A stretch of DNA of 19,601 nucleotides from an archaeon. Its GTDB lineage: Archaea; Undinarchaeota; Undinarchaeia; Undinarchaeales; JBDRKL01. The DNA lies in contig JBDRKL010000005.1 in the NCBI GenBank assembly GCA_043814055.1, positions 1-19,601 of the forward strand, written 5' to 3'. The notes below the pieces were generated by a model. The model was given only the letters and a program-made list of their open reading frames with translations, did no database searches and had not been told where the DNA came from. The translations under genes were made by a program, and so were the position numbers. Positions 4,158-13,409 of the stretch are shown here, piece by piece (positions within the stretch are counted from its first letter, which is position 1; each line of letters starts with the position of its first letter).

Positions 4158-5324
4158 CTAGTTTTTATATTTTCGGTAAGCATCGGCGACTGCTTCCGCT
4201 TCTGCCTTCATCACGTTTTTATCTAAAGGATTTGTGATTATGTTGTCCTCAGCGAGCTCGGAATCCGGGGTGCAGAACGCGATTGCCTTTGCTGCAGCGC
4301 GCATCATTTCCTGGGTTATTTCAGTTGCTTTTGCATCAAATGCTCCGCGGAAAATTGCTGGGAAACCTAGCACGTTGTTGATTTGGTTCGGATAGTCTGA
4401 GCGGCCGGTTGCGATTATTTTTGCACCTGCAGATTTTGCAAGCTCAGGTGCAATTTCAGGAGTAGGATTTGCGCAGGCGAAAATTATCGGGTCTGCTGCC
4501 ATTGCTTTTACCATTTCACCGGAAACTATGTTGCCGCGCGACAGTCCGAGGAACACATCAGCACCTTTCATCGCGTCAGCGAGAGTTCCTTCCTGTTCCA
4601 CTGCGAGGGATTTCTTGTAATCGTTCAGGTCTGCGCGGGCTGTACTCACGATTCCCTTGCTGTCGCACAGGATTATCTCTTTTACTCCAGCGTCCTTGTA
4701 GAATTTTGAGCACGCGATTCCGCCAGCTCCTGCGCCGGAGACCGCGACTTTTATTTCTGAGATTTTCTTGCCTGTTAATTTCAGTGCATTAAGCAGACCG
4801 GCGAGGGTTACTATTGCAGTGCCCCACTGGTCATCGTGGAAAACAGGGATATTAAGGTCTTGCTTGAGCACGGTTTCAATTTCAAAGCAACGCGGGGCTG
4901 AGATGTCCTCAAGGTTTATTCCGCCGAAGCTGGGGGCGATTACCTTGATTGTTTGGATAATTTCGTTTGGGTCTTTTGTGTTTAAGAGTATTGGAACTGC
5001 GTCAACTCCGGCGAGCTCCTTGAAGAGCACGCACTTGCCCTCCATTACTGGCAGGCCTGCCTCCGGGCCGATGTCACCGAGCCCGAGGACTGCGGTTCCA
5101 TCTGTTATTACCGCAACTGTGTTGCCCCGGTTTGTGAACTCGCTGATTTTTTCAGGGTGGTCTTTTATTTCGTTGCACACCTCTGCGACCCCGGGGGTAT
5201 ACGCAAGCGTGAGGTCTTTGAAGTTTTTGAGAGGAACTTTGCTTTTTGATTCTATCTTGCCGCAGCTTTGCGAGTGGTATTTGAGAACTTCGTTTTTTGT
5301 GTATGTGGCGCGAGGGGCGCTCAT
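4158..5324 (-). CDS. NAD(P)-dependent malic enzyme (short prokaryotic type)
   Basis: Motifs AYTPGVA, TDGTAVLGLGDIG, INLEDI, FHDDQWGT, GAGAGG, ANPTPE and TGRSDYPNQINN. Confidence 0.95.
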   Translation of the reverse strand: MSAPRATYTKNEVLKYHSQSCGKIESKSKVPLKNFKDLTLAYTPGVAEVCNEIKDHPEKISEFTNRGNTVAVITDGTAVLGLGDIGPEAGLPVMEGKCVLFKELAGVDAVPILLNTKDPNEIIQTIKVIAPSFGGINLEDISAPRCFEIETVLKQDLNIPVFHDDQWGTAIVTLAGLLNALKLTGKKISEIKVAVSGAGAGGIACSKFYKDAGVKEIILCDSKGIVSTARADLNDYKKSLAVEQEGTLADAMKGADVFLGLSRGNIVSGEMVKAMAADPIIFACANPTPEIAPELAKSAGAKIIATGRSDYPNQINNVLGFPAIFRGAFDAKATEITQEMMRAAAKAIAFCTPDSELAEDNIITNPLDKNVMKAEAEAVADAYRKYKN

Positions 5325-6610
5325 TTCTTTGGCCCCGTTGGCTCTATTTTTTTGAGTCCTGCCATATATGGCTGCAGAATTTTTGGTATTTTTATAGAGC
5401 CATCTTTCTGCTGGTTGTTTTCAAGAATTGCGATTATCGTCCTGCTGAGCGCGAGAGCTGTTGAGTTCAGCGTGTGGATGGGCTGCGGCTTCTCGCCAGA
5501 GTCAGTTCTGTAGCGTATGTTCAGGCGGCGCGCCTGGTAGTCAGTACAATTGCTGCACGATATTACTTCGCGGTAGGCACCCTGCCCCGGGAGCCAGGCT
5601 TCAATATCATATTTTTTAGATGCGGTGATTCCGAGTTCGCCGGTGCAGATGTTCACGATTCTGTAGGGGAGCTTGAGCTCCTGCATCAGGTTTTCAGCGC
5701 ACTTTAGGAGCAACTCGTGCTCTTCCCAACTCTTGTTTGGAGGGGAAAATGAGAACATTTCAAGCTTGTTGAACTGATGAACCCTGAATATGCCTTTTGT
5801 GTCTCTGCCGTGTGAGCCCGCTTCTGTGCGGTAGCAGGGAGAAAATGCCACGTAGTGGAGAGGGAGATCCTTGATGTCAAAAACTTCGTCCATGTGCATT
5901 CCGCAGATGGCGTGTTCTGCTGTCAATATTAGGTTGAGCCCTTCTTTTTCTATGCGGTAGATTTCCTTTTGGGAGCGCGGGAGCATTCCGACGCCGTACA
6001 TCACGCGGTCGTTCACGAGCGCAGGGGGGATTATTGCAGTAAATCCTTTTTTGACTAGGGCGTTGAACGCGTAGTTCGCGAGCGCGGTTTCAAGAAGCGC
6101 TGCCTCGTTTTTCAGGAAGAAAAAGCGGGCGCCGGAAGTTTTCGCAGCCCGCTCAATGTCGTACAAGTCCAGAGATTCGCAGATTTCAATGTGGTCGCGG
6201 GGCTTGAAATCAAATTTTGGTATAGCACCCCACTTTTTTAGCTCTTGAGTATCAGAGTCATCCTTGCCAGGGGGAACTGAATCGTGGACCAGGTTTGGAA
6301 TCTTGCTCAGCGCCATGTCACGCGAGGCTTTTGCGCTGTCAGTTTCACCCTCGGTTTTTTGTAGCTTCTTTGCGAGTTCCTGCATTTCCTTTATTTTCAC
6401 TGTAGCGTCTTTTTTTACCTTCTTGAGCTTGGCTATTTCCTCGTTTGCAACATTGCGCTTCTGCCTGAGCTTGTCGGCCTCCTGCAAGAGCTCACGCCAC
6501 TTCTTATCGTGCTCAAGAATTTGGTCTATTGCTGTTGGATTCTCGCCCCGCTTCGTCTGGGAGTCCTTCACTATCTGCGGATTTTCACGCAAAAGCTTGA
6601 TGTCTATCAT
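5321..6610 (-). CDS. serS: Serine--tRNA ligase (canonical type)
   Basis: N-terminal MIDIKLLREN and coiled-coil arm, LTAEH, motif 2 YRTEAGSHGRDTKGIFRVHQF, EVISCSNCTDYQARR and HTLNSTALA. ATGA overlap with the malic enzyme gene. Confidence 0.97.
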   Translation of the reverse strand: MIDIKLLRENPQIVKDSQTKRGENPTAIDQILEHDKKWRELLQEADKLRQKRNVANEEIAKLKKVKKDATVKIKEMQELAKKLQKTEGETDSAKASRDMALSKIPNLVHDSVPPGKDDSDTQELKKWGAIPKFDFKPRDHIEICESLDLYDIERAAKTSGARFFFLKNEAALLETALANYAFNALVKKGFTAIIPPALVNDRVMYGVGMLPRSQKEIYRIEKEGLNLILTAEHAICGMHMDEVFDIKDLPLHYVAFSPCYRTEAGSHGRDTKGIFRVHQFNKLEMFSFSPPNKSWEEHELLLKCAENLMQELKLPYRIVNICTGELGITASKKYDIEAWLPGQGAYREVISCSNCTDYQARRLNIRYRTDSGEKPQPIHTLNSTALALSRTIIAILENNQQKDGSIKIPKILQPYMAGLKKIEPTGPKK

Positions 6611-6618
6611 TGATTCAC

Positions 6619-7659
6619 CTATAGTTTTGGCACAGTTGCCATGCTCTGGAGCAGCAGCTCAACTGTGTTTGCTATGTCCCGCAGGTCAACCACCTCAACC
6701 GGTGTATGCAGGTAGCGCACAGGAATGCCGATGCCTACAGAGGGAACGCCGGATTTTGAAAGGGAAATTGCAGTGGCATCCGTTGTTCCGCCGCCTATGA
6801 CTTCTTTCTGGTAGGGTATTTTGCCTTTCTTTGCCGTAGAGGTGAGCCAGTCAACGATGACGCGATTGGCCATAAGACCGCTGCCAACGCAGTCCTTGCT
6901 TCCGTCCGCGAGCGTGATTACCGGCCCCTTGCCAAGCTCAACCGCGCTCTCGTGCTTTTCAACCCCAGGTATGTCACCAGGAAGGGTTGTGTCAACAGAA
7001 ATACCAATATCAGGGGTAACATCAAATGCAGTGATGCGCGCGCCTTTCAAGCCGACCTCTTCCTGCACAGTGAACACGCCGTATACCTCGCACTTTGGCT
7101 TGACTTTTTTCATGAATTCAATCAATGCTACGACTCCTGCGCGGTTGTCAAGCGCTTTTCCAGTGAACAGCTTGCCCATTTTGGTTGCAGGGAAACGAAC
7201 TGAGGCCCAGTTTCCAACTGAGATTCCTGCTTTTTCCACTTCTTTTCGCGAGCTGAATCCAGCATCCAGAAACATCTTGTCCATCTTTACAGGGGTCTTG
7301 CGCTCATCCTCACTCATCATGTGTATTGGTTTTGAGCCAGCCACAGCGATTAGGTCGCCTTTATCCCCGTGGATTGTTACCCGCTGGCCGAGCAGGATTT
7401 GGTCGTTCCAGCCACCAACAGGGGCAAACTTGATGAAACCGTTGTCGTCAATATACTTGACCATAAGACCAGTCTCGTCCATGTGCGCAGCGAGCATAAC
7501 CCGCGGCTTTCCCTTGCCCTTGCGTGTGAACACGTTTCCGAACGCGTCAGTGCGCATTTCGTCAACCTTGCCGCGCAGCTCCCTCTGCACAATCTTTGAA
7601 ATATTCGCCTCGTTGCCTGAGACACTTGGTGAATCACATAGCGTTTTTAATAGTTCCAT
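6619..7659 (-). CDS. M42 family (TET-like) aminopeptidase
   Basis: Metal-ligand motifs AAHMDE, ALDNRAG, VQEEVGLKGA, SVDT, GGTTDA and RYLHTP. SD-like GGGGGT upstream. Confidence 0.93.
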   Translation of the reverse strand: MELLKTLCDSPSVSGNEANISKIVQRELRGKVDEMRTDAFGNVFTRKGKGKPRVMLAAHMDETGLMVKYIDDNGFIKFAPVGGWNDQILLGQRVTIHGDKGDLIAVAGSKPIHMMSEDERKTPVKMDKMFLDAGFSSRKEVEKAGISVGNWASVRFPATKMGKLFTGKALDNRAGVVALIEFMKKVKPKCEVYGVFTVQEEVGLKGARITAFDVTPDIGISVDTTLPGDIPGVEKHESAVELGKGPVITLADGSKDCVGSGLMANRVIVDWLTSTAKKGKIPYQKEVIGGGTTDATAISLSKSGVPSVGIGIPVRYLHTPVEVVDLRDIANTVELLLQSMATVPKL

Positions 7660-7724
7660 TGTATACCCCCTGGACTTATTTGGGGGGGTGGGTTTTTAAA
7701 GTTATTGTATTTGATTATTTGGCT

Positions 7725-7747
7725 CTGTCTATACACCTGTATAGAAA
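7725..7747. repeat. Palindromic box A, copy 1 (CTGTCTATACACCTGTATAGAAA)
   Basis: Perfect 8-bp inverted arms TCTATACA/TGTATAGA with a 2-bp spacer (7728-7745). 22/23 identical to 11513-11535. Confidence 0.85.
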
Positions 7748-7934
7748 CTGCCCTAATACTTTTGCTTGTTTGGCGCAAGGTTGCGATTTTTGGGGGGCCT
7801 GGGGGGAAAAAATGGTTTTTGAGCCATCTTTGTTCCGCCCACCCAGAAAGGCTAAAATGTCATAATATTTGTAGAGCGGCCAGGGGCGGAAAATTCGGAA
7901 AATTTTGCCTAAATAAACCAGTAGCAAGAGGGTA

Positions 7935-7950
7935 AGTTGACAAGTTGACA
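7935..7950. repeat. Tandem AGTTGACA x2 (TGTCAAC family)
   Basis: AGTTGACA-AGTTGACA read directly. Same core as the copies at 8248-8271 and 8427-8448. Confidence 0.7.
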
Positions 7951-8038
7951 TATTAAAATGCGTTAAATCGGATGCAGGCTAGTGATTTAAATATAAAATC
8001 AGAAGCAAGCGGAGTATGTGAGACTAAAATTTTCGGTT

Positions 8039-8112
8039 AACTCTCACAATAGGGCGAAACTCACACACAGATATACTCGCGCATAAGGGCACCGAAAGAC
8101 CAACTCTCACAA
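8039..8112 (-). repeat. Two copies of motif B (TTGTGAGAGTT) on the minus strand
   Basis: AACTCTCACAA at 8039-8049 and 8102-8112. Both are exact reverse complements of 11036-11046. Confidence 0.75.
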
Positions 8113-8247
8113 ACGGCGTAGACAGGAATTCAAAACCAGTATGCTGCGTCCGACACATTTTTAGCTATTTCTCACCAGGTTTTGGCAAACGCCAGGCCAG
8201 AATTTTTTAAAAATCATTTGAGTTTTTAAAGTTTTTGAAAACATCAA

Positions 8248-8271
8248 TATGTCAACTGACGAGTTGACATA
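8248..8271. repeat. Inverted repeat TATGTCAACT-GACG-AGTTGACATA (putative operator; right arm is also part of a dif-like 28-mer)
   Basis: Perfect 10-bp arms with a 4-bp spacer, about 110 bp upstream of the wHTH gene at 8381. Confidence 0.8.
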
Positions 8272-8332
8272 ATAATCAATATGCTTTGCGGTATAGAAAG
8301 AATGTGTAATGTGACAGATTGTTATGTAAACT

Positions 8333-8358
8333 ATTTGTCAAGTGACAAATTATATATA
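8333..8358 (+). promoter_or_regulatory. TATA box of the 8381 gene with an overlapping upstream palindrome (putative operator)
   Basis: ATTTGTCA-AG-TGACAAAT (8333-8350) abuts TTATATATA (8350-8358), 22 nt before ATG 8381. The spacing is consistent with a leaderless transcript. Confidence 0.65.
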
Positions 8359-8380
8359 CTAAAAAACGATAGTATGCAAT

Positions 8381-8884
8381 ATGGGTTGGAGAACTATTCT
8401 TGGTCTGGAAAAGAAAAAAGAGAAGAAAAGTGTCAACAAAGTGTCAACTGTACAGAAGAAACCATCCAAAAAGCCGAAAACCGTTACGCAGAGCCAGGTA
8501 GAAGACCCAATGATTTCATTCTCAAGGCAGCTCACAATGATACAGGGAGAGATGCAGAACATAGAAACCATTATGCAGAGCGGGTTTACAGGCCTTCGGG
8601 AGGATCACCATAGGATACTTGAAGAGCAGGAGAAAGCCATGGAAATCAAGAAGGGTCGCCTGGAACAAGCCAAACAGAACATAGAAAACGAGATAGAGAT
8701 GCTTGAGGTTGACAGCAAGATTTTGAACCTCCTAAAGATTGAAAAAATGCAAAGCGTTGCGATTTCAGAGCGACTTGGGGTAACTAGACAGTACGCAGCA
8801 ACACGATTAAATGAACTTGACAGAAATGGGTATTTGAAGAAAGTCAAAAGCGGGAGAAAGGTTTATTATAAGTTGAACGGGTAA
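8381..8884 (+). CDS. Winged-helix DNA-binding protein with N-terminal amphipathic peptide, Lys-rich linker and central coiled coil
   Basis: C-terminal DSKILNLLK...AISERLGVTRQYAATRLNELDRNGYLKKVKSGRKVYYKL fits an ArsR/MarR-like wHTH. The middle is heptad-like and E/K/Q-rich. TATA box upstream. Confidence 0.8.
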   Translation: MGWRTILGLEKKKEKKSVNKVSTVQKKPSKKPKTVTQSQVEDPMISFSRQLTMIQGEMQNIETIMQSGFTGLREDHHRILEEQEKAMEIKKGRLEQAKQNIENEIEMLEVDSKILNLLKIEKMQSVAISERLGVTRQYAATRLNELDRNGYLKKVKSGRKVYYKLNG

Positions 8885-8898
8885 ACTAAAAACTAGCA

Positions 8899-9006
8899 CT
8901 ATGCTTTCTGTTTTCTTGCCTCGCGCTTGCGCCTGCGCATCTTCTTTTTACGCCACTTCCATCGCTGCTGGCCTTTTTTCTTGAATGCCCTGCTGCTTCG
9001 TTTCAT
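8899..9006 (-). CDS. rpl41e: Ribosomal protein L41e (eL41/eS32), 35 aa; not in the ORF track
   Basis: Translates MKRSSRAFKKKGQQRWKWRKKKMRRRKREARKQKA*, matching the eL41 signature RWKWxKKxxRR. TATA-like ATATAAA on the minus strand about 25-30 nt upstream. Confidence 0.9.
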   Translation of the reverse strand: MKRSSRAFKKKGQQRWKWRKKKMRRRKREARKQKA

Positions 9007-9085
9007 TGATCATTGTGTATCTACGCGCTGGTTTATATGTCTTTCCCAGAGTAAAGTATTTAAACCGGTTGGGTAAAGGAAAGGC

Positions 9086-9583
9086 ATGAACAACAAGGCG
9101 CTTAACTGGGTGCACCGGTTGTTAGTAATCAATACACTGCAGCCGATTATGCGTATTGATTCACTTATTGAAGGGCTTGTTGTCAGCACTTTTGGGGTCC
9201 TTATTTCACTGTTTGGCGCTGCTATTTTCACACAATTAGAACTTGTACGGTCAGCTCAAATCGCTGTGCTTGGGTTCTATGCATACTCCACAGTTCTGGT
9301 TGTGCACTACCTGTATTACAAGTGGGGAAAGCGGAAAGAGTGGACAATTTTAGCTGACAAAAGCAGGAATTATTTACCAATGTTGCTTGGAAGCATACTG
9401 GTTTGGAGTCTTTACCTCAAAGTTGTGGATCGCGCCTTGTATCTGGCGATTTTACCAGGCGGGTTGCAATTTGTGCTTGAGGGACTGCCGGGCTTAATAG
9501 CCCTTATGCTGCCGCTTTTCGCATGGGAATGGCTGTCAAAAGTGACGCCTGTTGATGAAATCGTGAGGTGGCACTTCAAATGA
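9086..9583 (+). CDS. Hypothetical integral membrane protein (about 4 TM segments); true start may be 9149
   Basis: Four hydrophobic stretches. Divergent from rpl41e, with TATTTAAA at 9057-9064. Confidence 0.65.
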   Translation: MNNKALNWVHRLLVINTLQPIMRIDSLIEGLVVSTFGVLISLFGAAIFTQLELVRSAQIAVLGFYAYSTVLVVHYLYYKWGKRKEWTILADKSRNYLPMLLGSILVWSLYLKVVDRALYLAILPGGLQFVLEGLPGLIALMLPLFAWEWLSKVTPVDEIVRWHFK

Positions 9584-9846
9584 GCGAAATGATACAAAAC
9601 GCAGAGAAGTCCCTTGGTTTTCTGGCACAGGCTGCTGATTTCTTTAGCGGGCTAAGCATCACTGTGAACTGGTTGTTGGCCTGGCTTGCCAATTTGGGCC
9701 TCACCTCAATGCAAGCCTATGCCATAATCGGGATACTGGCCCTGTTTTCACTGCTTGGGCTGCTCAGATTTATCATGCTCATAACGAAGATATTGATAAT
9801 CGTGCTGATTTTATGGGTTGTCTTGAGCCTTGTTGGAATTCTTTAG
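9580..9846 (+). CDS. Small hypothetical membrane protein
   Basis: ATGA overlap with the upstream gene supports a start at 9580 (MSEMIQ). The C-terminal half is strongly hydrophobic. Confidence 0.7.
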   Translation: MSEMIQNAEKSLGFLAQAADFFSGLSITVNWLLAWLANLGLTSMQAYAIIGILALFSLLGLLRFIMLITKILIIVLILWVVLSLVGIL

Positions 9847-10338
9847 AAGGGTGCTTGCTCTTGCTTTTGCCGTCTGGACTATGCTCTCGTACTCCTTTGC
9901 AACGTGCGAGAAGAAAATTGAGAACTGGGTGCTCGGCTTTACGATTTTCTTGTAGTACTTCTGCCTGGCTTTTTCGTGGTGGAATGCCTCCCGCTCAAGG
10001 GAAACCATGCCTATGCGCCGCAGCCGGGGAAGGACTATATTGTAGAATGTGGCCTTGGAATAGTTGTTTTTCTTTATGAATTCGCCCAAATCGTCGCCAC
10101 GCATCTCGGTTTTAGTCAAAAGGGCATTCATGAATTTGAGTGAGATGTCATAGTACTTAGCCTGGTACTGAGGGGGGAATACAATTTGGAGGATTTGGTC
10201 CAGCTCCAGCCTAACGTTTTGGTGGTATTTCCAGGAGTCTCTGAGCTTGCGTATATCAGCTAGGCAGAGGGATTCCTTGCTCGGAATGCCCCGGCTGGGT
10301 GGCTGCTTTTTAACATTGTCCTGGTGTTTTTCTGTCAT
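9811..10338 (-). CDS. Hypothetical protein with a probable winged-helix domain
   Basis: Segment GDDLGEFIKKNNYSKATFYNIVLPRLRRIGMVSLER has a helix-turn-helix plus wing pattern. TTTTATATA on the minus strand at about 10362-10370. Confidence 0.7.
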   Translation of the reverse strand: MTEKHQDNVKKQPPSRGIPSKESLCLADIRKLRDSWKYHQNVRLELDQILQIVFPPQYQAKYYDISLKFMNALLTKTEMRGDDLGEFIKKNNYSKATFYNIVLPRLRRIGMVSLEREAFHHEKARQKYYKKIVKPSTQFSIFFSHVAKEYESIVQTAKARASTLLKNSNKAQDNP

Positions 10339-10559
10339 AAGTTTAAGTTAAGTCTTTGTGGTATATAAAAGTTGCCGAAAAAGAGAGTAGTAGTGACAAA
10401 AAAATCGCGGGGCGGGTCTATTGTAGTGGTGTGTTATGAGCTTTTTGGGTGCCCCAGGTATGCCTGTTTGGGGCAAAAGCGCGAAAACGCAGGATTTAGG
10501 GGTTTTAGAGGGTGCAAATGGGTGACAGAATTGGCGCTTCAGCAGAATTTAAACAATAT

Positions 10560-10874
10560 CTAAATAACACCACTATAGTATGGGGCTGGCTGTCGTGTGA
10601 GAGCTGGTTTTTCGGTTATTTTTTCAAAATGCTCAGCGAGTTTTTTGCCCTGCTCAGTGAGCTCAATGTATTTTGTGCGGCCTTCCTTCCTGAATTCAAC
10701 TAAACCCAGTTCACACATTTGGGTCAGAAGGTTGGTTGCGTGCGCGTAAGTGCAGTTTGTTTTTTTAGCTAATTGCGCCACAAACGGCTTTTTCCCACGC
10801 TTGATTGACAACAAAAGGTTGACAGGCTTTTCTCGTATAAATATAGATTCAGGGTATCTGTTTTGATTTTTCAT
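10560..10874 (-). CDS. MarR-like winged-helix DNA-binding protein
   Basis: VAQLAKKTNCTYAHATNLLTQMCELGLVEFRKEGRTKYIELTEQGKKLA is a classic archaeal wHTH pattern. SD-like GGAG upstream. Confidence 0.85.
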   Translation of the reverse strand: MKNQNRYPESIFIREKPVNLLLSIKRGKKPFVAQLAKKTNCTYAHATNLLTQMCELGLVEFRKEGRTKYIELTEQGKKLAEHFEKITEKPALTRQPAPYYSGVI

Positions 10875-11170
10875 TTTTTAGTTTCTCCGAAAGTGTGTTA
10901 GGGGTTGTATGACAGGCACATTTTTGTTTTAAAGCAGAGTGTTGCGCTATCATCTACAAGTTTGGTTTAATGCTTTTTAATATATATGTTTTGCTATATA
11001 GGTTATAGAGTATTTTGAGCATATTGGAGCACCAATTGTGAGAGTTGGGGTGAGAACAGCATTGTGAGTGAGACCGAAAAAAGAGTTCACGCAGGATGGG
11101 AGAGATAGGTATGGAATAGTGGCTTCGCTGCGTATGAGTGATAGTCCCAACAGCTCCCTGTGCGCAGGCG

Positions 11171-11190
11171 AAGAGAAAAGGATTTAAACG
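11171..11190 (+). promoter_or_regulatory. BRE/TATA promoter of tRNA-Gly
   Basis: Purine-rich AAGAGAAAAG followed by TTTAAA (11183-11188), about 32 nt upstream of the tRNA 5' end. Confidence 0.6.
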
Positions 11191-11219
11191 CGTATGAGAG
11201 AATTAAACATAGAGAAAAC

Positions 11220-11336
11220 GCACCGGTGATCCAGTCTGGTAAGATTCAAGCTTCCCAGGCCCACAAATGGCGGAAAAAGCTTGCCACCCGGGTTCAAATG
11301 CGTGTTTTAACGCTGAAATTCCCGGCCGGTGCACCA
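11220..11336 (+). tRNA. tRNA-Gly(CCC) with two introns: 11258-11277 (37/38) and 11299-11319 (59/60); CCA encoded
   Basis: Acceptor stem GCACCGG/CCGGTGC plus A-CCA. Anticodon stem CAAGC/GCTTG with loop TT-CCC-AA. T stem CCGGG/CCCGG with loop TTCAAAT. Removing both introns gives a 76-nt cloverleaf, and each intron forms a strict bulge-helix-bulge. Confidence 0.93.
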
Positions 11337-11512
11337 GTTCCTTCTATTTTTGGCTCCGTTTGTGAGGGTTGTGCTCTGTGTACGCAGAAGTGTTGAATTC
11401 TGAGAGAGTTTGTGAGGGGGTTGTTGTGTGGAGTGTGTGGATTTTGCATTTTGTGAGGGTTTGCGGACCGAAAGTTTGAGGCTCACAAGACGCCGTCAAT
11501 ATGCATAATATC

Positions 11513-11535
11513 CTGTCTATACACTTGTATAGAAA
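11513..11535. repeat. Palindromic box A, copy 2 (CTGTCTATACACTTGTATAGAAA)
   Basis: Same arms as copy 1, with the single difference in the spacer. Followed by a G5 run at 11546-11550. Confidence 0.85.
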
Positions 11536-11781
11536 AGGTGCTTGAGGGGGTTGGATCCCCTTTTAACTTGTGCGAAGCATAGGGGTTTTGAGGAGCATGA
11601 TTTTTAACAACGCGGTTTGTAGGTGGTTAGGCAGGGGTTGCTCCCTCGTGTGCTTGGACCCCACACTAGAAAAGCGCAAACCTTAAAAAGCTCTGCGCAT
11701 AGTATAAAAGTCCTAAAATGAGAAACAATTCGAACCTAGGGACAGGAACTCTAGTTATGGATTGTTGCAAAGGAGGATAAA

Positions 11782-12108
11782 ATGGATGTACAGTTTGAAA
11801 CCATACAAGCAGAGGAGATAAAGTTTGGCAACAACAACTTCATCGAGGTAGCCCGCAAGAAGGCGATTACTGGTGAAGGCGAGAACGAGTTCGTCGCGGT
11901 TTCGCGCGGATTCTTCGCACCGGACGGAACCAAGAGGTTCAAGAAGAGCTTCACGATTCCGGACGCGCCAGAGGTCGTTGACTTCATCTGCAGCAACATA
12001 AAGGCAATGGCAGCAGGCGTAACCAACACAGCGCCAGCAAAGCCAGCACCTGCAGCAGAGGAAGCGCCGGCTGTTGAAGAGGCAGAAGAAGAACAGCCTG
12101 CTGAATAA
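11782..12108 (+). CDS. Small protein, putative PC4/PUR-like nucleic-acid-binding domain with an Ala/Pro/Glu-rich tail
   Basis: Strong SD AGGAGG (11771-11776) and biased codons. Several beta-strand-like segments with aromatic and basic residues, then one helix and an acidic tail. The fold assignment is inference. Confidence 0.75.
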   Translation: MDVQFETIQAEEIKFGNNNFIEVARKKAITGEGENEFVAVSRGFFAPDGTKRFKKSFTIPDAPEVVDFICSNIKAMAAGVTNTAPAKPAPAAEEAPAVEEAEEEQPAE

Positions 12109-12208: not shown

Positions 12209-12535
12209 TTACTCTTCATCAACGCCAGGCAGTATTACTTCGTCGTCTTCCTCAGTCATTGCTGCTGCTTTCTCATACTGCTTAGGCACGGTCACGAGCA
12301 CAACGTCGTCGCACGCAATAACCTCGCGGTAGGGTATCATTATGTTTTTCTTGACTCCCTGCTCCGACGGGGACAGCGTCTTGTAGAGGAAACTCTCGCG
12401 GGCCATTGTCACGGCGAAGCCGTTGATGCCCCCCTTCTCAGTATCAACAATAGTATCCTCTATCTTGCCGACGTATTTCGCGTTCCGCGTGTATACGTTT
12501 CTTCCAGCCAGGCTGGTCAGGTTTAGGACTGTCAT
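12209..12535 (-). CDS. PRC-barrel domain protein (CdpB-like family)
   Basis: LAGRNVYTRNAKYVGKIEDTIVDTEKGGINGF...IPYREVIACDDVVLV is a PRC-barrel signature. Start moved to MTVLNL (12535) because ATATATAAA lies about 25-33 nt upstream. Confidence 0.88.
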   Translation of the reverse strand: MTVLNLTSLAGRNVYTRNAKYVGKIEDTIVDTEKGGINGFAVTMARESFLYKTLSPSEQGVKKNIMIPYREVIACDDVVLVTVPKQYEKAAAMTEEDDEVILPGVDEE

Positions 12536-12654
12536 CTTACTTGTGTCTTTGTTTCTGGGTTTATATATTTTTGTGTGGCAGCTTTGCGCTTGGCTTTGGG
12601 GGTGCCACAATGTTTTTAAACTGGTGCGGCTTACGAAGGTGCTGGTGACCCTGA

Positions 12655-12843
12655 ATGCCTGATATCAAAGAAGCGCTTGAAAAAATGCTTGACGTTCTTG
12701 TTGAGAAAATTGAAGAAGAGGAAGAGAAGTTAATAGTCTATGTTAACAAGGAACTTGTTGGCAGAGCCATCGGGCCAAGCGGTTCGGTTGTGAGGAGCGC
12801 CGAGCTGATACTTGGGACAGCCATTGAGGTTCGGGGAATTTGA
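12655..12843 (+). CDS. Stand-alone single KH-domain protein (NusA-type KH)
   Basis: VGRAIGPSGSVV contains the KH GxxG loop. SD GGTGA 6 nt upstream. Confidence 0.75.
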   Translation: MPDIKEALEKMLDVLVEKIEEEEEKLIVYVNKELVGRAIGPSGSVVRSAELILGTAIEVRGI

Positions 12844-13409
12844 GAAAGAGATTTAGTTCTTTAGAAATTAAGCACCTTGTTGTTTCAATTTTGGCGATGT
12901 CTATTATTCTGGCCTGGGATGGTTCGGTTGTAGGAACACTTTCCTGGTTCCCGCTATACCTTGTACTCATAGCTCCTGCTTTTGCGTTTCATGAACTGGG
13001 TCACAAGTTTGCGGCGCAGAAGTACGGTTTCCACGCAGAGTATAGGATGTGGAGGCAGGGGTTGTTTTTTGCGGCTGCGCTTGCCTTGATTTCAAACGGA
13101 AATTTTACATTCATCGCACCAGGCGCGGTTTACTTTGGAGGTCGGCAAGGCTCGGACGCACAGGTTGGAAAGATTGGGTTCGCGGGACCGTTGGTTAATT
13201 TGATTCTTGCCGCAGGATTTGGGATGGCTGGTGTGCTGACCGGAAATGGCTTGCTGATGCTCGGGGCTTACATAAATTCATTCATTGCACTTTTCAACTT
13301 GATTCCGTTCCCGCCGTTTGACGGGCAGAAGATAATGGCGTGGAATAAGCTTTATTGGGCTATGGCGCTTGGTTTAGGGATTGTGCTGTTTGTTATGAGT
13401 TCGGGTTAG
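12840..13409 (+). CDS. Site-2 protease family (M50) membrane metalloprotease
   Basis: HELGH zinc motif, AGPLVN and NLIPFPPFDG, multiple TM segments. The TTG start overlaps the KH gene stop. Confidence 0.92.
   Translation: MRKRFSSLEIKHLVVSILAMSIILAWDGSVVGTLSWFPLYLVLIAPAFAFHELGHKFAAQKYGFHAEYRMWRQGLFFAAALALISNGNFTFIAPGAVYFGGRQGSDAQVGKIGFAGPLVNLILAAGFGMAGVLTGNGLLMLGAYINSFIALFNLIPFPPFDGQKIMAWNKLYWAMALGLGIVLFVMSSG

Follow-up and report, generated by a model that had tools for sequence, protein, structure and literature searches.

Outside a single stretch, the genes of the 19,601-nt window analysed here overlap or abut, as judged from its list of open reading frames (ORFs). The window is the entire contig C5 (JBDRKL010000005.1) of an archaeal genome of the order Undinarchaeales (14 contigs, 979,685 bp, 82% complete). 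What, then, is the stretch from 7660 to 11781, where three non-coding spacers of 721 nt (7660-8380), 345 nt (10875-11219) and 445 nt (11337-11781) interrupt the packing, carry repeated DNA motifs and surround three small genes assigned to winged helix-turn-helix (wHTH) proteins? A first-pass annotation, which had put the spacers at about 720, 345 and 445 bp, suggested an origin, a centromere or a nucleoid-anchoring locus in which each wHTH protein reads one motif family. This interpretation is partly supported by our results. We consider it probable, at slightly better than an even chance, that the locus consists of mirror-image arrays of putative protein-binding sites of two convergent winged-helix operons, a multi-site docking region that is at least autoregulatory and is situated ~8 kb from the replication origin. 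In the following, G000 denotes the source genome (family f1), f2 to f5 are other Undinarchaeales families, and L-numbers refer to fetched loci.

The motifs set the locus apart from the rest of the genome. TTGTGAGRGTT (motif B) is present in five copies in the 980-kb genome, and all of them lie within 7660-11781, where 0.02 would be expected. The two left-hand copies (8039 and 8102) are on the minus strand and the three right-hand ones (11036, 11360 and 11451) on the plus strand, the opposed arrangement that had been pointed out earlier. The shorter word TGTGAGRG has 7 of its 38 genome copies in the locus, and TGTCAAC/GTTGACA (motif C), reported to be clustered here, has 8 of 215 against 0.9 expected. 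When the genome was scanned for clusters of at least three sites within 600 nt, those of B and of C were found in this locus only. The 23-bp palindromic box A (CTGTCTATACAC[C/T]TGTATAGAAA in the window) is present at both outer edges, as had been described, and its core TCTATACAYYTGTATAGA has three copies in the 979,685-bp genome, two at the locus edges and one at C13:6245. The two AT-rich tracts noted earlier are real and coincide with promoter regions (GC 0.21-0.26). The pattern as a whole is well beyond chance.

The arrangement of the motifs follows that of the genes. wH1 runs rightward and wH3-p175 runs leftward, forming two convergent operons whose upstream regions are the long spacers; this convergence gives the arms their mirror symmetry. 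Each arm spans 0.5-0.9 kb and displays, from outside to inside, the box A palindrome, B sites and promoter-proximal half-site clusters (motif C at wH1). The B sites, 3-7 copies per arm, are asymmetric, ~13 nt long (TAACTCTCACAAA) and in the sense of the gene; in both arms, (C/T)TCTCACA(A/T) is found 100-700 nt upstream when read in gene sense. In the 900-nt flanks of 12 loci, TGTGAGA pointed outward 66 times and inward 7 times against a background of 0.037 per kb per strand, counts that come from related and hence not independent genomes, and the summed profile of the B sites approximates TAACTCTCACA(A/T)(A/T). The extended site CGTTTGTGAGAGTTGG is kept at the same place in both arms of L024-L026, and both arms of the f3 loci share an inner block composed of AAAACCGATAGCAAGCG, ~30 nt and TCGTTTGTGAGAGTTA. 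The left arms of different f3 genomes resemble one another more than do the left and right arms of one genome, indicating that the motif blocks are kept by selection and not by recent gene conversion. Searches of both arms against the genome with blastn-short detected no further copies of either arm except box A, and the idea of an accretion array, which would make the B repeats re-copied targets of hairpin cassettes, was left unsupported by this result. A fourth conserved word (AAACCGATAGCAAG in f3, AAACCGCTATGC in f5 and AACCAGTAGCAAG in the window) was seen in both arms and near the wH1 promoter (arms of L024-L026; L025:5309-5325, 5768-5800 and 8025-8040; window 7917-7931).

Genes and motifs are conserved together in relatives. 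wH1, p175, wH3 and the neighbouring gene p108 were present together in all 11 fetched loci from four other families, flanked by seryl-tRNA synthetase (with or without an M42 peptidase) on one side and by p108 and an M50 protease on the other, and profile searches detected wH1, p175 and wH3 each in 12 of 13 Undinarchaeales genomes. In the f3 genomes, every copy of TTGTGAGRGTT lies in the locus (4/4 in G010, 3/3 in G006 and 3/3 in G002), and a variant with different flanks in f4 and f5, TCTCACATTT, has 16 of its 21 copies there (5 genomes). Motif B accompanies wH1 throughout the phylum, and is found upstream of wH1 in G014-G016. The module of wH1 plus array is thus phylum-wide, and in Undinarchaeales it occurs twice, as a mirrored pair that encloses three winged-helix genes. 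Domain and PHROG scans revealed no integrase, transposase, invertase or recombinase in the locus, and with synteny in 11/11 loci of relatives the region is chromosomal rather than mobile, as previously judged. A partition ATPase was found neither among the scanned window proteins nor in the 12 loci. The orientation of the wH1 to wH3 segment relative to its flanks differs among families, being one way in the window (f1), f2 and f4 and opposite in f3 and f5 (L016-L026), and in f3 the entire block is found beyond orc1, on its opposite side. Inversions of this kind may have been promoted by the mirrored arms.

The structure of wH1 and the sites around its start were then compared. In addition to a hydrophobic N-terminal peptide and a polybasic tract, the protein has a coiled-coil-like helix, the conserved motif EDPxISxSRQLT and, at its C-terminus, a wHTH domain, which was matched by Pfam at an expectation value (E) of ~1e-3 and is ArsR/AspA-like by profile (E 3e-5 and 1e-4), the latter match being to the AspA structures PDB 5k5q/5k1y. 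In an alignment, the hydrophobic and polybasic N-terminus and the long helix are conserved. The hydrophobic moment of the N-terminus was low in 11/11 orthologues, which implies that it is not a classical amphipathic membrane helix. From -300 to +150 of the wH1 start, TGTCA/TGACA is present 7 times in f1 (1.15 expected), 9, 7 and 5 times in f2, 11, 9 and 2 times in f3, and 1-2 times in f4 and f5; a conserved TATA box of its own also lies proximal to wH1. Arrays of GTGTTAA/ATGTTAA (11, 3 and 6 copies in the same interval) replace the TGTCA sites in three genomes of other orders, whose wH1 orthologues are 28-29% identical, and the distal CTCACA sites persist. A proximal motif that differs by wH1 lineage is what would be expected of a cognate protein-site pair. 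In L025:5890-5975 and L024:5700-5930, TGTCA/TGACA palindromes crowd the codons for the variable wH1 N-terminal linker (peptide ...DMSGEVSDDTSDMSDD...). Judging from these codons, the site array seems to shape the wH1 protein sequence.

Concerning box A, the third genome copy led to a gene unlinked to the locus, encoding a 90-aa protein, p90 (G000:C13:5970-6262; L003:1226-1518). In all four genomes compared (G000, G002, G006 and G010), this copy lies between a TATA-like element and the p90 ATG, abutting the ATG. The orthologues of p90 in G010, G006 and G002 are 53-54% identical, no Pfam match was obtained, and the model (predicted local distance difference test (pLDDT) 87.4) displayed a MarR/AF1382-like winged-helix fold with a template modelling score (TM) of 0.68. 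Box A and p90 are co-present in f1 and f3, and each f3 locus is likewise edged by two box A copies. As for f4 and f5, box A was not found in G004 and G007, and p90 was not found in G003, G004, G007 and G012; in f2, p90 was not found in G001 and the box A core was absent from all three loci. Since the third copy abuts the p90 ATG and since box A and p90 co-occur across families, box A is best read as a p90 operator that the locus has borrowed at both outer edges. A putative palindromic operator on its own promoter is thereby present both for p90 (box A, 4/4 genomes) and for wH1 (TGTCA-N-TGACA). The proposal that each local wHTH protein reads one motif family fails here, as box A is better assigned to a protein encoded on another contig.

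It fails for motif B as well, which is present upstream of wH1 in orders where neither p175 nor wH3 was detected, apart from wH3 in G013. p175 was evaluated as the binder of B and rejected on two counts. Its homologues in Micrarchaeota (31-43% identity, 5 loci), and L054, are without TGTGAG arrays, and in G014-G016 the B sites stand upstream of wH1 with p175 undetected (0/4) and wH3 found only in G013; the completeness of G014-G016, 72-91%, bears on these non-detections.

Of the three genes that the first-pass annotation took to encode wHTH proteins, those starting at 8381 (plus strand, wH1) and 10874 (minus strand, wH3) were supported by profile matches, and that at 10338 (minus strand, p175) by an AlphaFold2 (AF2) model only, with no Pfam match. 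wH3 matched DUF6293_C (E 2.7e-6) and AF_1382 (E 1e-10). A winged helix was thus found in wH1, wH3 and p90, and weakly in p175, whose fold matches were at E 3e-3 or worse. Of the three proteins, p175 is nevertheless conserved best (56-71% identity). It is more conserved than the neighbouring seryl-tRNA synthetase, and relatives occur in Micrarchaeota and in Atlas clusters labelled Microcaldota and Altarchaeota. Identification of p175 as a divergent TFE-alpha was not upheld (TFIIE-alpha fold match at E 3e-3; PF02002 in 1 of 11 orthologues at E 0.028) and is no more than a lead; no PF02002 match passed the cut-off in the 82%-complete G000. p175 could be a divergent general factor. Paralogy within the pairs wH1/wH3, p90/wH3 and p175/wH3 was also dismissed, as hhalign gave generic winged-helix similarity or none.

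The reading that we favour, docking arrays of two convergent operons, builds on the anatomy, motif uniqueness, motif conservation and protein folds established above. According to it, wH1 would bind lineage-specific proximal sites that run into its own 5' coding region, resulting in autoregulation. The unlinked p90 would bind box A at both outer edges and at its own promoter, and motif B would be bound by a factor that travels with wH1, and not with p175 or wH3. The bound factors together would form a multi-site nucleoprotein complex controlling at least both operons. Taking into account that the arrays are large, have a single address and are near the origin, and that wH1 has an N-terminal peptide and a long helix, a role beyond gene control is plausible. 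Several observations weigh against these docking arrays. A strand orientation as strict as that of B (66 vs 7) would be expected of a transcribed or polar element sooner than of ordinary operators, and plain autoregulation, in a genome of overlapping genes, would seem to need less than the >1.5 kb of non-coding DNA and up to 13 sites present here. The distance from box A to neighbouring promoters is not constant, and the p175 homologues of Micrarchaeota have no TGTGAG arrays adjacent to them. Alignments inspected by eye revealed no recognition-helix change that tracks the AAA and TTT flank variants, and helical phasing of the B spacing is merely suggestive, with a scan-corrected p of 0.11 for one genome per family and 0.0006 for all genomes, which are not independent.

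The suggestion that the locus itself is an origin can be answered directly: it is not the origin. G000 has a single orc1/cdc6 gene, at the start of contig C8 (C8:366-1571), and the preceding C8:1-365 (L004) harbours three origin recognition box (ORB)-type cores (TTTCCTCTGGAAA twice and CTCCATAGGAAACGAAGGGGCGGGG) and a TA-rich tract. The ORB core TCCNNNGGAAA is present three times in C8:1-300 and is absent from C5, as is a narrower pattern. The end of C5 (19560-19601) is TA-rich (GC 0.21), and the start of C8 has a GC of 0.17. In G007 and G004, orthologues of the last C5 genes are directly followed by orc1 and the first C8 genes, which indicates that C5 and C8 adjoin, that the assembly broke within the origin and that the locus is ~8 kb from it. 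oriC thus appears to have been split by assembly at the junction of the C5 end and the C8 start, and its position is fixed for these genomes. In 7 of the 8 genomes of the order that were checked, orc1 is on the same contig as wH1 at a distance of 13-22 kb; in G001, G014 and G015, it is on a contig other than that of wH1. GC skew in 2-kb windows flips at orc1 and not at the winged-helix locus in G002, G004, G007 and weakly in G006, and in G000 it is positive throughout C5 and negative throughout C8. The skew is positive upstream of orc1 and negative downstream (G000 C5/C8; G002:C2, G004:C6, G007:C35), a polarity opposite to the bacterial convention of a G-rich leading strand; it is strong near the origin, up to ~0.3-0.4, and weak on several other contigs. 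A canonical archaeal oriC comprises ORB boxes, a DNA-unwinding element and an adjacent orc1/cdc6 gene. The present locus resembles it in its AT-rich tracts and in repeats oppositely oriented on two sides, and differs in having no ORB core, initiator gene or skew switch.

The same tracts, the iteron-like repeats beside winged-helix genes and weak PHROG matches between the winged-helix domains and the C-terminal parts of a viral helicase and a primase would be consistent with a second, non-canonical origin served by a local winged-helix initiator. With the canonical oriC only ~8 kb away, no ORB core in C5, no skew flip at the locus in G000 or four relatives, and no helicase, primase or AAA+ gene in the locus, we regard this as so improbable as to be nearly negligible. 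A centromere or an anchoring site stays in play because the locus is near the origin. The arrays may nucleate a wH1-centred complex that, much in the way of SegB/segS, RicO/ricS or ParB/parS, anchors, insulates or segregates the origin region, with autoregulation as a by-product, an alternative that we take seriously and hold to be unlikely on balance. Clusters of B and C found at one place only imply that their binders have essentially one chromosomal address, and the locus combines clustered, near-unique, origin-proximal sites with the gene of a presumed binder. The distance to the origin (13-22 kb in 7/8 genomes of the order, ~8 kb in G000 by synteny), the phylum-wide module and the build of wH1, with a conserved hydrophobic/polybasic N-terminus, a long helix and an AspA/ArsR-like wHTH domain, point the same way. 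SMC and ParA/MinD-like ATPases are encoded elsewhere in the genome (the latter on C6, C4 and C13). As far as the available text of the respective reports describes, SegB sites cluster round their own gene (PMC12858884), and RicO unites a membrane helix with a DNA-binding domain, its sites being origin-proximal (bioRxiv 10.64898/2026.03.06.710092). On the other hand, no nucleoside triphosphatase (NTPase) gene accompanies the presumed binder, in or beside any of the 12 loci, the wH1 N-terminus fails the amphipathic-helix test owing to its low hydrophobic moment, origin proximity could be inherited synteny only, and the phasing of the B sites does not go beyond suggestion. A broader version, to which we give a little less credence still, would have wH1 of Undinarchaeota, and perhaps of many DPANN archaea, sitting on two mirrored unique arrays with p90/box A as boundaries, and tethering, insulating or segregating the origin with no need of ParB or of a ParA encoded nearby; its N-terminal peptide would then bind a partner or the membrane, alongside the coiled coil and the winged helix.

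The strong strand bias of B keeps alive, at low probability, an element acting as RNA. Here the arms would be transcribed, either inward, as long leaders started by promoters at box A, or outward, as non-coding RNAs, and UCUCACA/UGUGAGA would be sites for RNA factors or processing signals round tRNA-Gly. TATA-like tracts are visible by eye ~27-32 nt outside both box A copies (TTTTTAAAG, ~27 nt outside the left one), the tRNA-Gly of L025 is tightly flanked by CTCACAA on both sides, and sliding-window folding detected local hairpins at inverted B pairs and at box A. Rfam gave no match in 7600-11800, at gathering score or at E up to 1, and the mean fold z of the arms (-0.2 to -0.6) was like that of coding controls (+0.7 to -0.8), with one exception (-2.27, minus strand of 11337-11540). 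Among sequencing runs, one DNA run containing 5% of the sampled words was listed, and no RNA run. In addition, tRNA and motif differ in relative orientation among the window, the f3 loci, L021 and L022, wH1 has a proximal TATA box of its own, and the sequence between motifs is not conserved between families, all of which makes the RNA element improbable. Descent from a captured mobile element or from an invertible segment, with the arms as old terminal inverted repeats and box A as the recombination site, would account for inverted repeats that end in a palindrome, for the changing orientation of the wH1 to wH3 segment and for the variable arm and orientation of the tRNA. It is very improbable in light of the absence of integrase, transposase and invertase genes, a box A that lies outside the tRNA, the same chromosomal position across the order (synteny in 11/11 loci), arms without copies elsewhere except box A and without recent homogenisation, and arrays kept in f4 and f5 without box A.

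The features of the locus are compiled in Table 1. A tRNA-Gly(CCC) gene is embedded in the right arm; it was not detected by ARAGORN or Rfam because it contains two introns of ~20 nt. This gene is always within an arm, and both the arm and its orientation vary (window; L021:2310-2402; L022:3378-3467; L024-L026 at ~5010-5322). Depending on the genome, it has 0, 1 or 2 introns, and in L025 it is flush with CTCACAA on both sides. Of the two core genes that had been placed inside the locus, tRNA-Gly stands, on the plus strand, whereas rpl41e depends on a 35-aa ORF recognized by eye, for which no Pfam match was found. Among the fetched loci, relatives of the small proteins mem1 and mem2 were found only in L017 and L020 of f4. 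Searches with Pfam and other profiles assigned p108 to no family. p108 has an acidic tail and is followed by genes for a PRC-barrel protein, a small KH-domain protein and an M50 protease (12209-13409), and this set adjoins the locus in most families.

Table 1. Features of the locus and its borders, in window coordinates
Feature	Position	Strand	Basis
Left arm: wH1 upstream region, with the M42 peptidase promoter at its outer edge	7660..8380		721-nt spacer; motif order as in the right arm and in both arms of L024-L026
Box A, left copy; palindrome TCTATACA-CC-TGTATAGA	7725..7747		genome word search
Motif C pair GTTGACAAGTTGACA	7936..7950	+	
Inverted B-core pair (TGTGAGA ... TCTCACA), hairpin/palindrome; includes the B site 8039-8049 (-)	8017..8049		local fold z -2.4 to -3.0
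Motif B, innermost of the left arm, CGTTTGTGAGAGTTGG on the minus strand	8102..8112	-	
AT-rich tract, GC 0.26	8190..8250		composition
Motif C palindrome TGTCAAC-N6-GTTGACA	8250..8269		
Motif C palindrome TTTGTCA-AG-TGACAAA, immediately 5' of the TATA box of wH1, TTATATATA	8334..8349		
wH1, 167 aa	8381..8884	+	ORF and profile matches
Two GTGTCAAC sites in wH1 codons 17-23	8430-8449		
35-aa Arg/Lys-rich ORF, eL41-like by eye	8899..9006	-	ORF only
mem1 (9086-9583) and mem2 (9568-9846), small predicted membrane proteins	9086..9846	+	ORF calls
p175, 175 aa, putative winged-helix core and long C-terminal helix	9811..10338	-	AF2 model, pLDDT 67.7
wH3, 104 aa, MarR/AF_1382-like winged helix	10560..10874	-	profile matches
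Right arm: upstream region of the wH3-p175 operon, tRNA-Gly embedded	10875..11781		spacer and motif order
AT-rich tract, GC 0.21	10960..11015		composition
Motif B sites 11036-11046 and 11062-11068	11036..11068	+	
tRNA-Gly(CCC), introns ~11257-11276 (position 37/38) and ~11299-11319 (T-loop)	11220..11336	+	alignment to intron-less L025:5148-5221
Motif B sites 11360-11370, 11410-11422 and 11451-11461 (+); inverted partner 11482-11488 (-)	11360..11488		
Box A, right copy	11513..11535		genome word search
p108, conserved neighbour, 66-83% identity	11782..12108	+	bounds the locus in all families

In the titles and opening lines of abstracts of the literature on Undinarchaeota, on DPANN origins with winged-helix proteins and on archaeal segregation, no description of this locus was found, and the main text of the paper describing Undinarchaeota contains no mention of Cdc6, winged, TFE or segregation. 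Even if its function is purely regulatory, the locus provides candidate protein-site pairs for four uncharacterised winged-helix families: p90 with box A, wH1 with its proximal sites, and motif B with a presumed binder of its own. A streamlined genome of ~1 Mb devotes ~1.5 kb of non-coding DNA to arrays that have one address, by the origin, and that are kept phylum-wide.

Among known systems, AspA of the plasmid pNOB8 is an ArsR-like winged-helix protein that binds a palindrome upstream of its own operon and acts as the adaptor of a ParA-ParB-AspA system with one palindrome. wH1 would be similar as an archaeal ArsR-like winged helix with a palindromic site, presumed to be bound, upstream of its own operon; it differs in having no ParA or ParB partner and in a main repeat that is asymmetric and dispersed at 40-120 nt. 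ParR/parC of R1 and incC-repA-incA of P1 are tight tandem plasmid arrays that flank the gene of their binder and are autoregulated. Repeats on both sides of a presumed binder gene and the autoregulation proposed here recall these systems, whereas the sites of the present locus are 40-120 nt apart, chromosomal and phylum-wide.

How origins are positioned and segregated in archaea is largely unknown, as stated for Sulfolobus in the available part of a report on SegB (PMC12858884), and the locus is a concrete, testable candidate for this function. According to the same text, many SegB sites cluster round segAB and few are present elsewhere, and the bound region was proposed to be a centromere-like insulated domain. 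So far as that account goes, a small protein (presumed here to bind DNA) and sites concentrated round its own gene are shared with SegB/segS. The presumed binders of the present locus are winged-helix proteins with no adjacent NTPase gene, and its sites occupy two intergenic arms of ~0.7 kb each, whereas SegB sites are mostly intragenic over 20-25 kb (PMC12858884). RicO of Staphylococcus aureus, as described in the accessible portion of its report, combines a DNA-binding domain with a terminal peptide and recognizes a motif, ricS, confined near the origin (bioRxiv 10.64898/2026.03.06.710092). wH1 likewise has a DNA-binding domain and a short terminal peptide on one protein, together with an origin-proximal motif; RicO is bacterial and unrelated in sequence, and its helix is C-terminal and amphipathic, unlike the wH1 peptide, which is N-terminal and fails the hydrophobic-moment test. 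Should the wH1 arrays and p90 boundaries prove to be a chromosome landmark, which we think doubtful, they might constitute an archaeal functional analogue of SegB/segS, RicO/ricS or RacA/ram.

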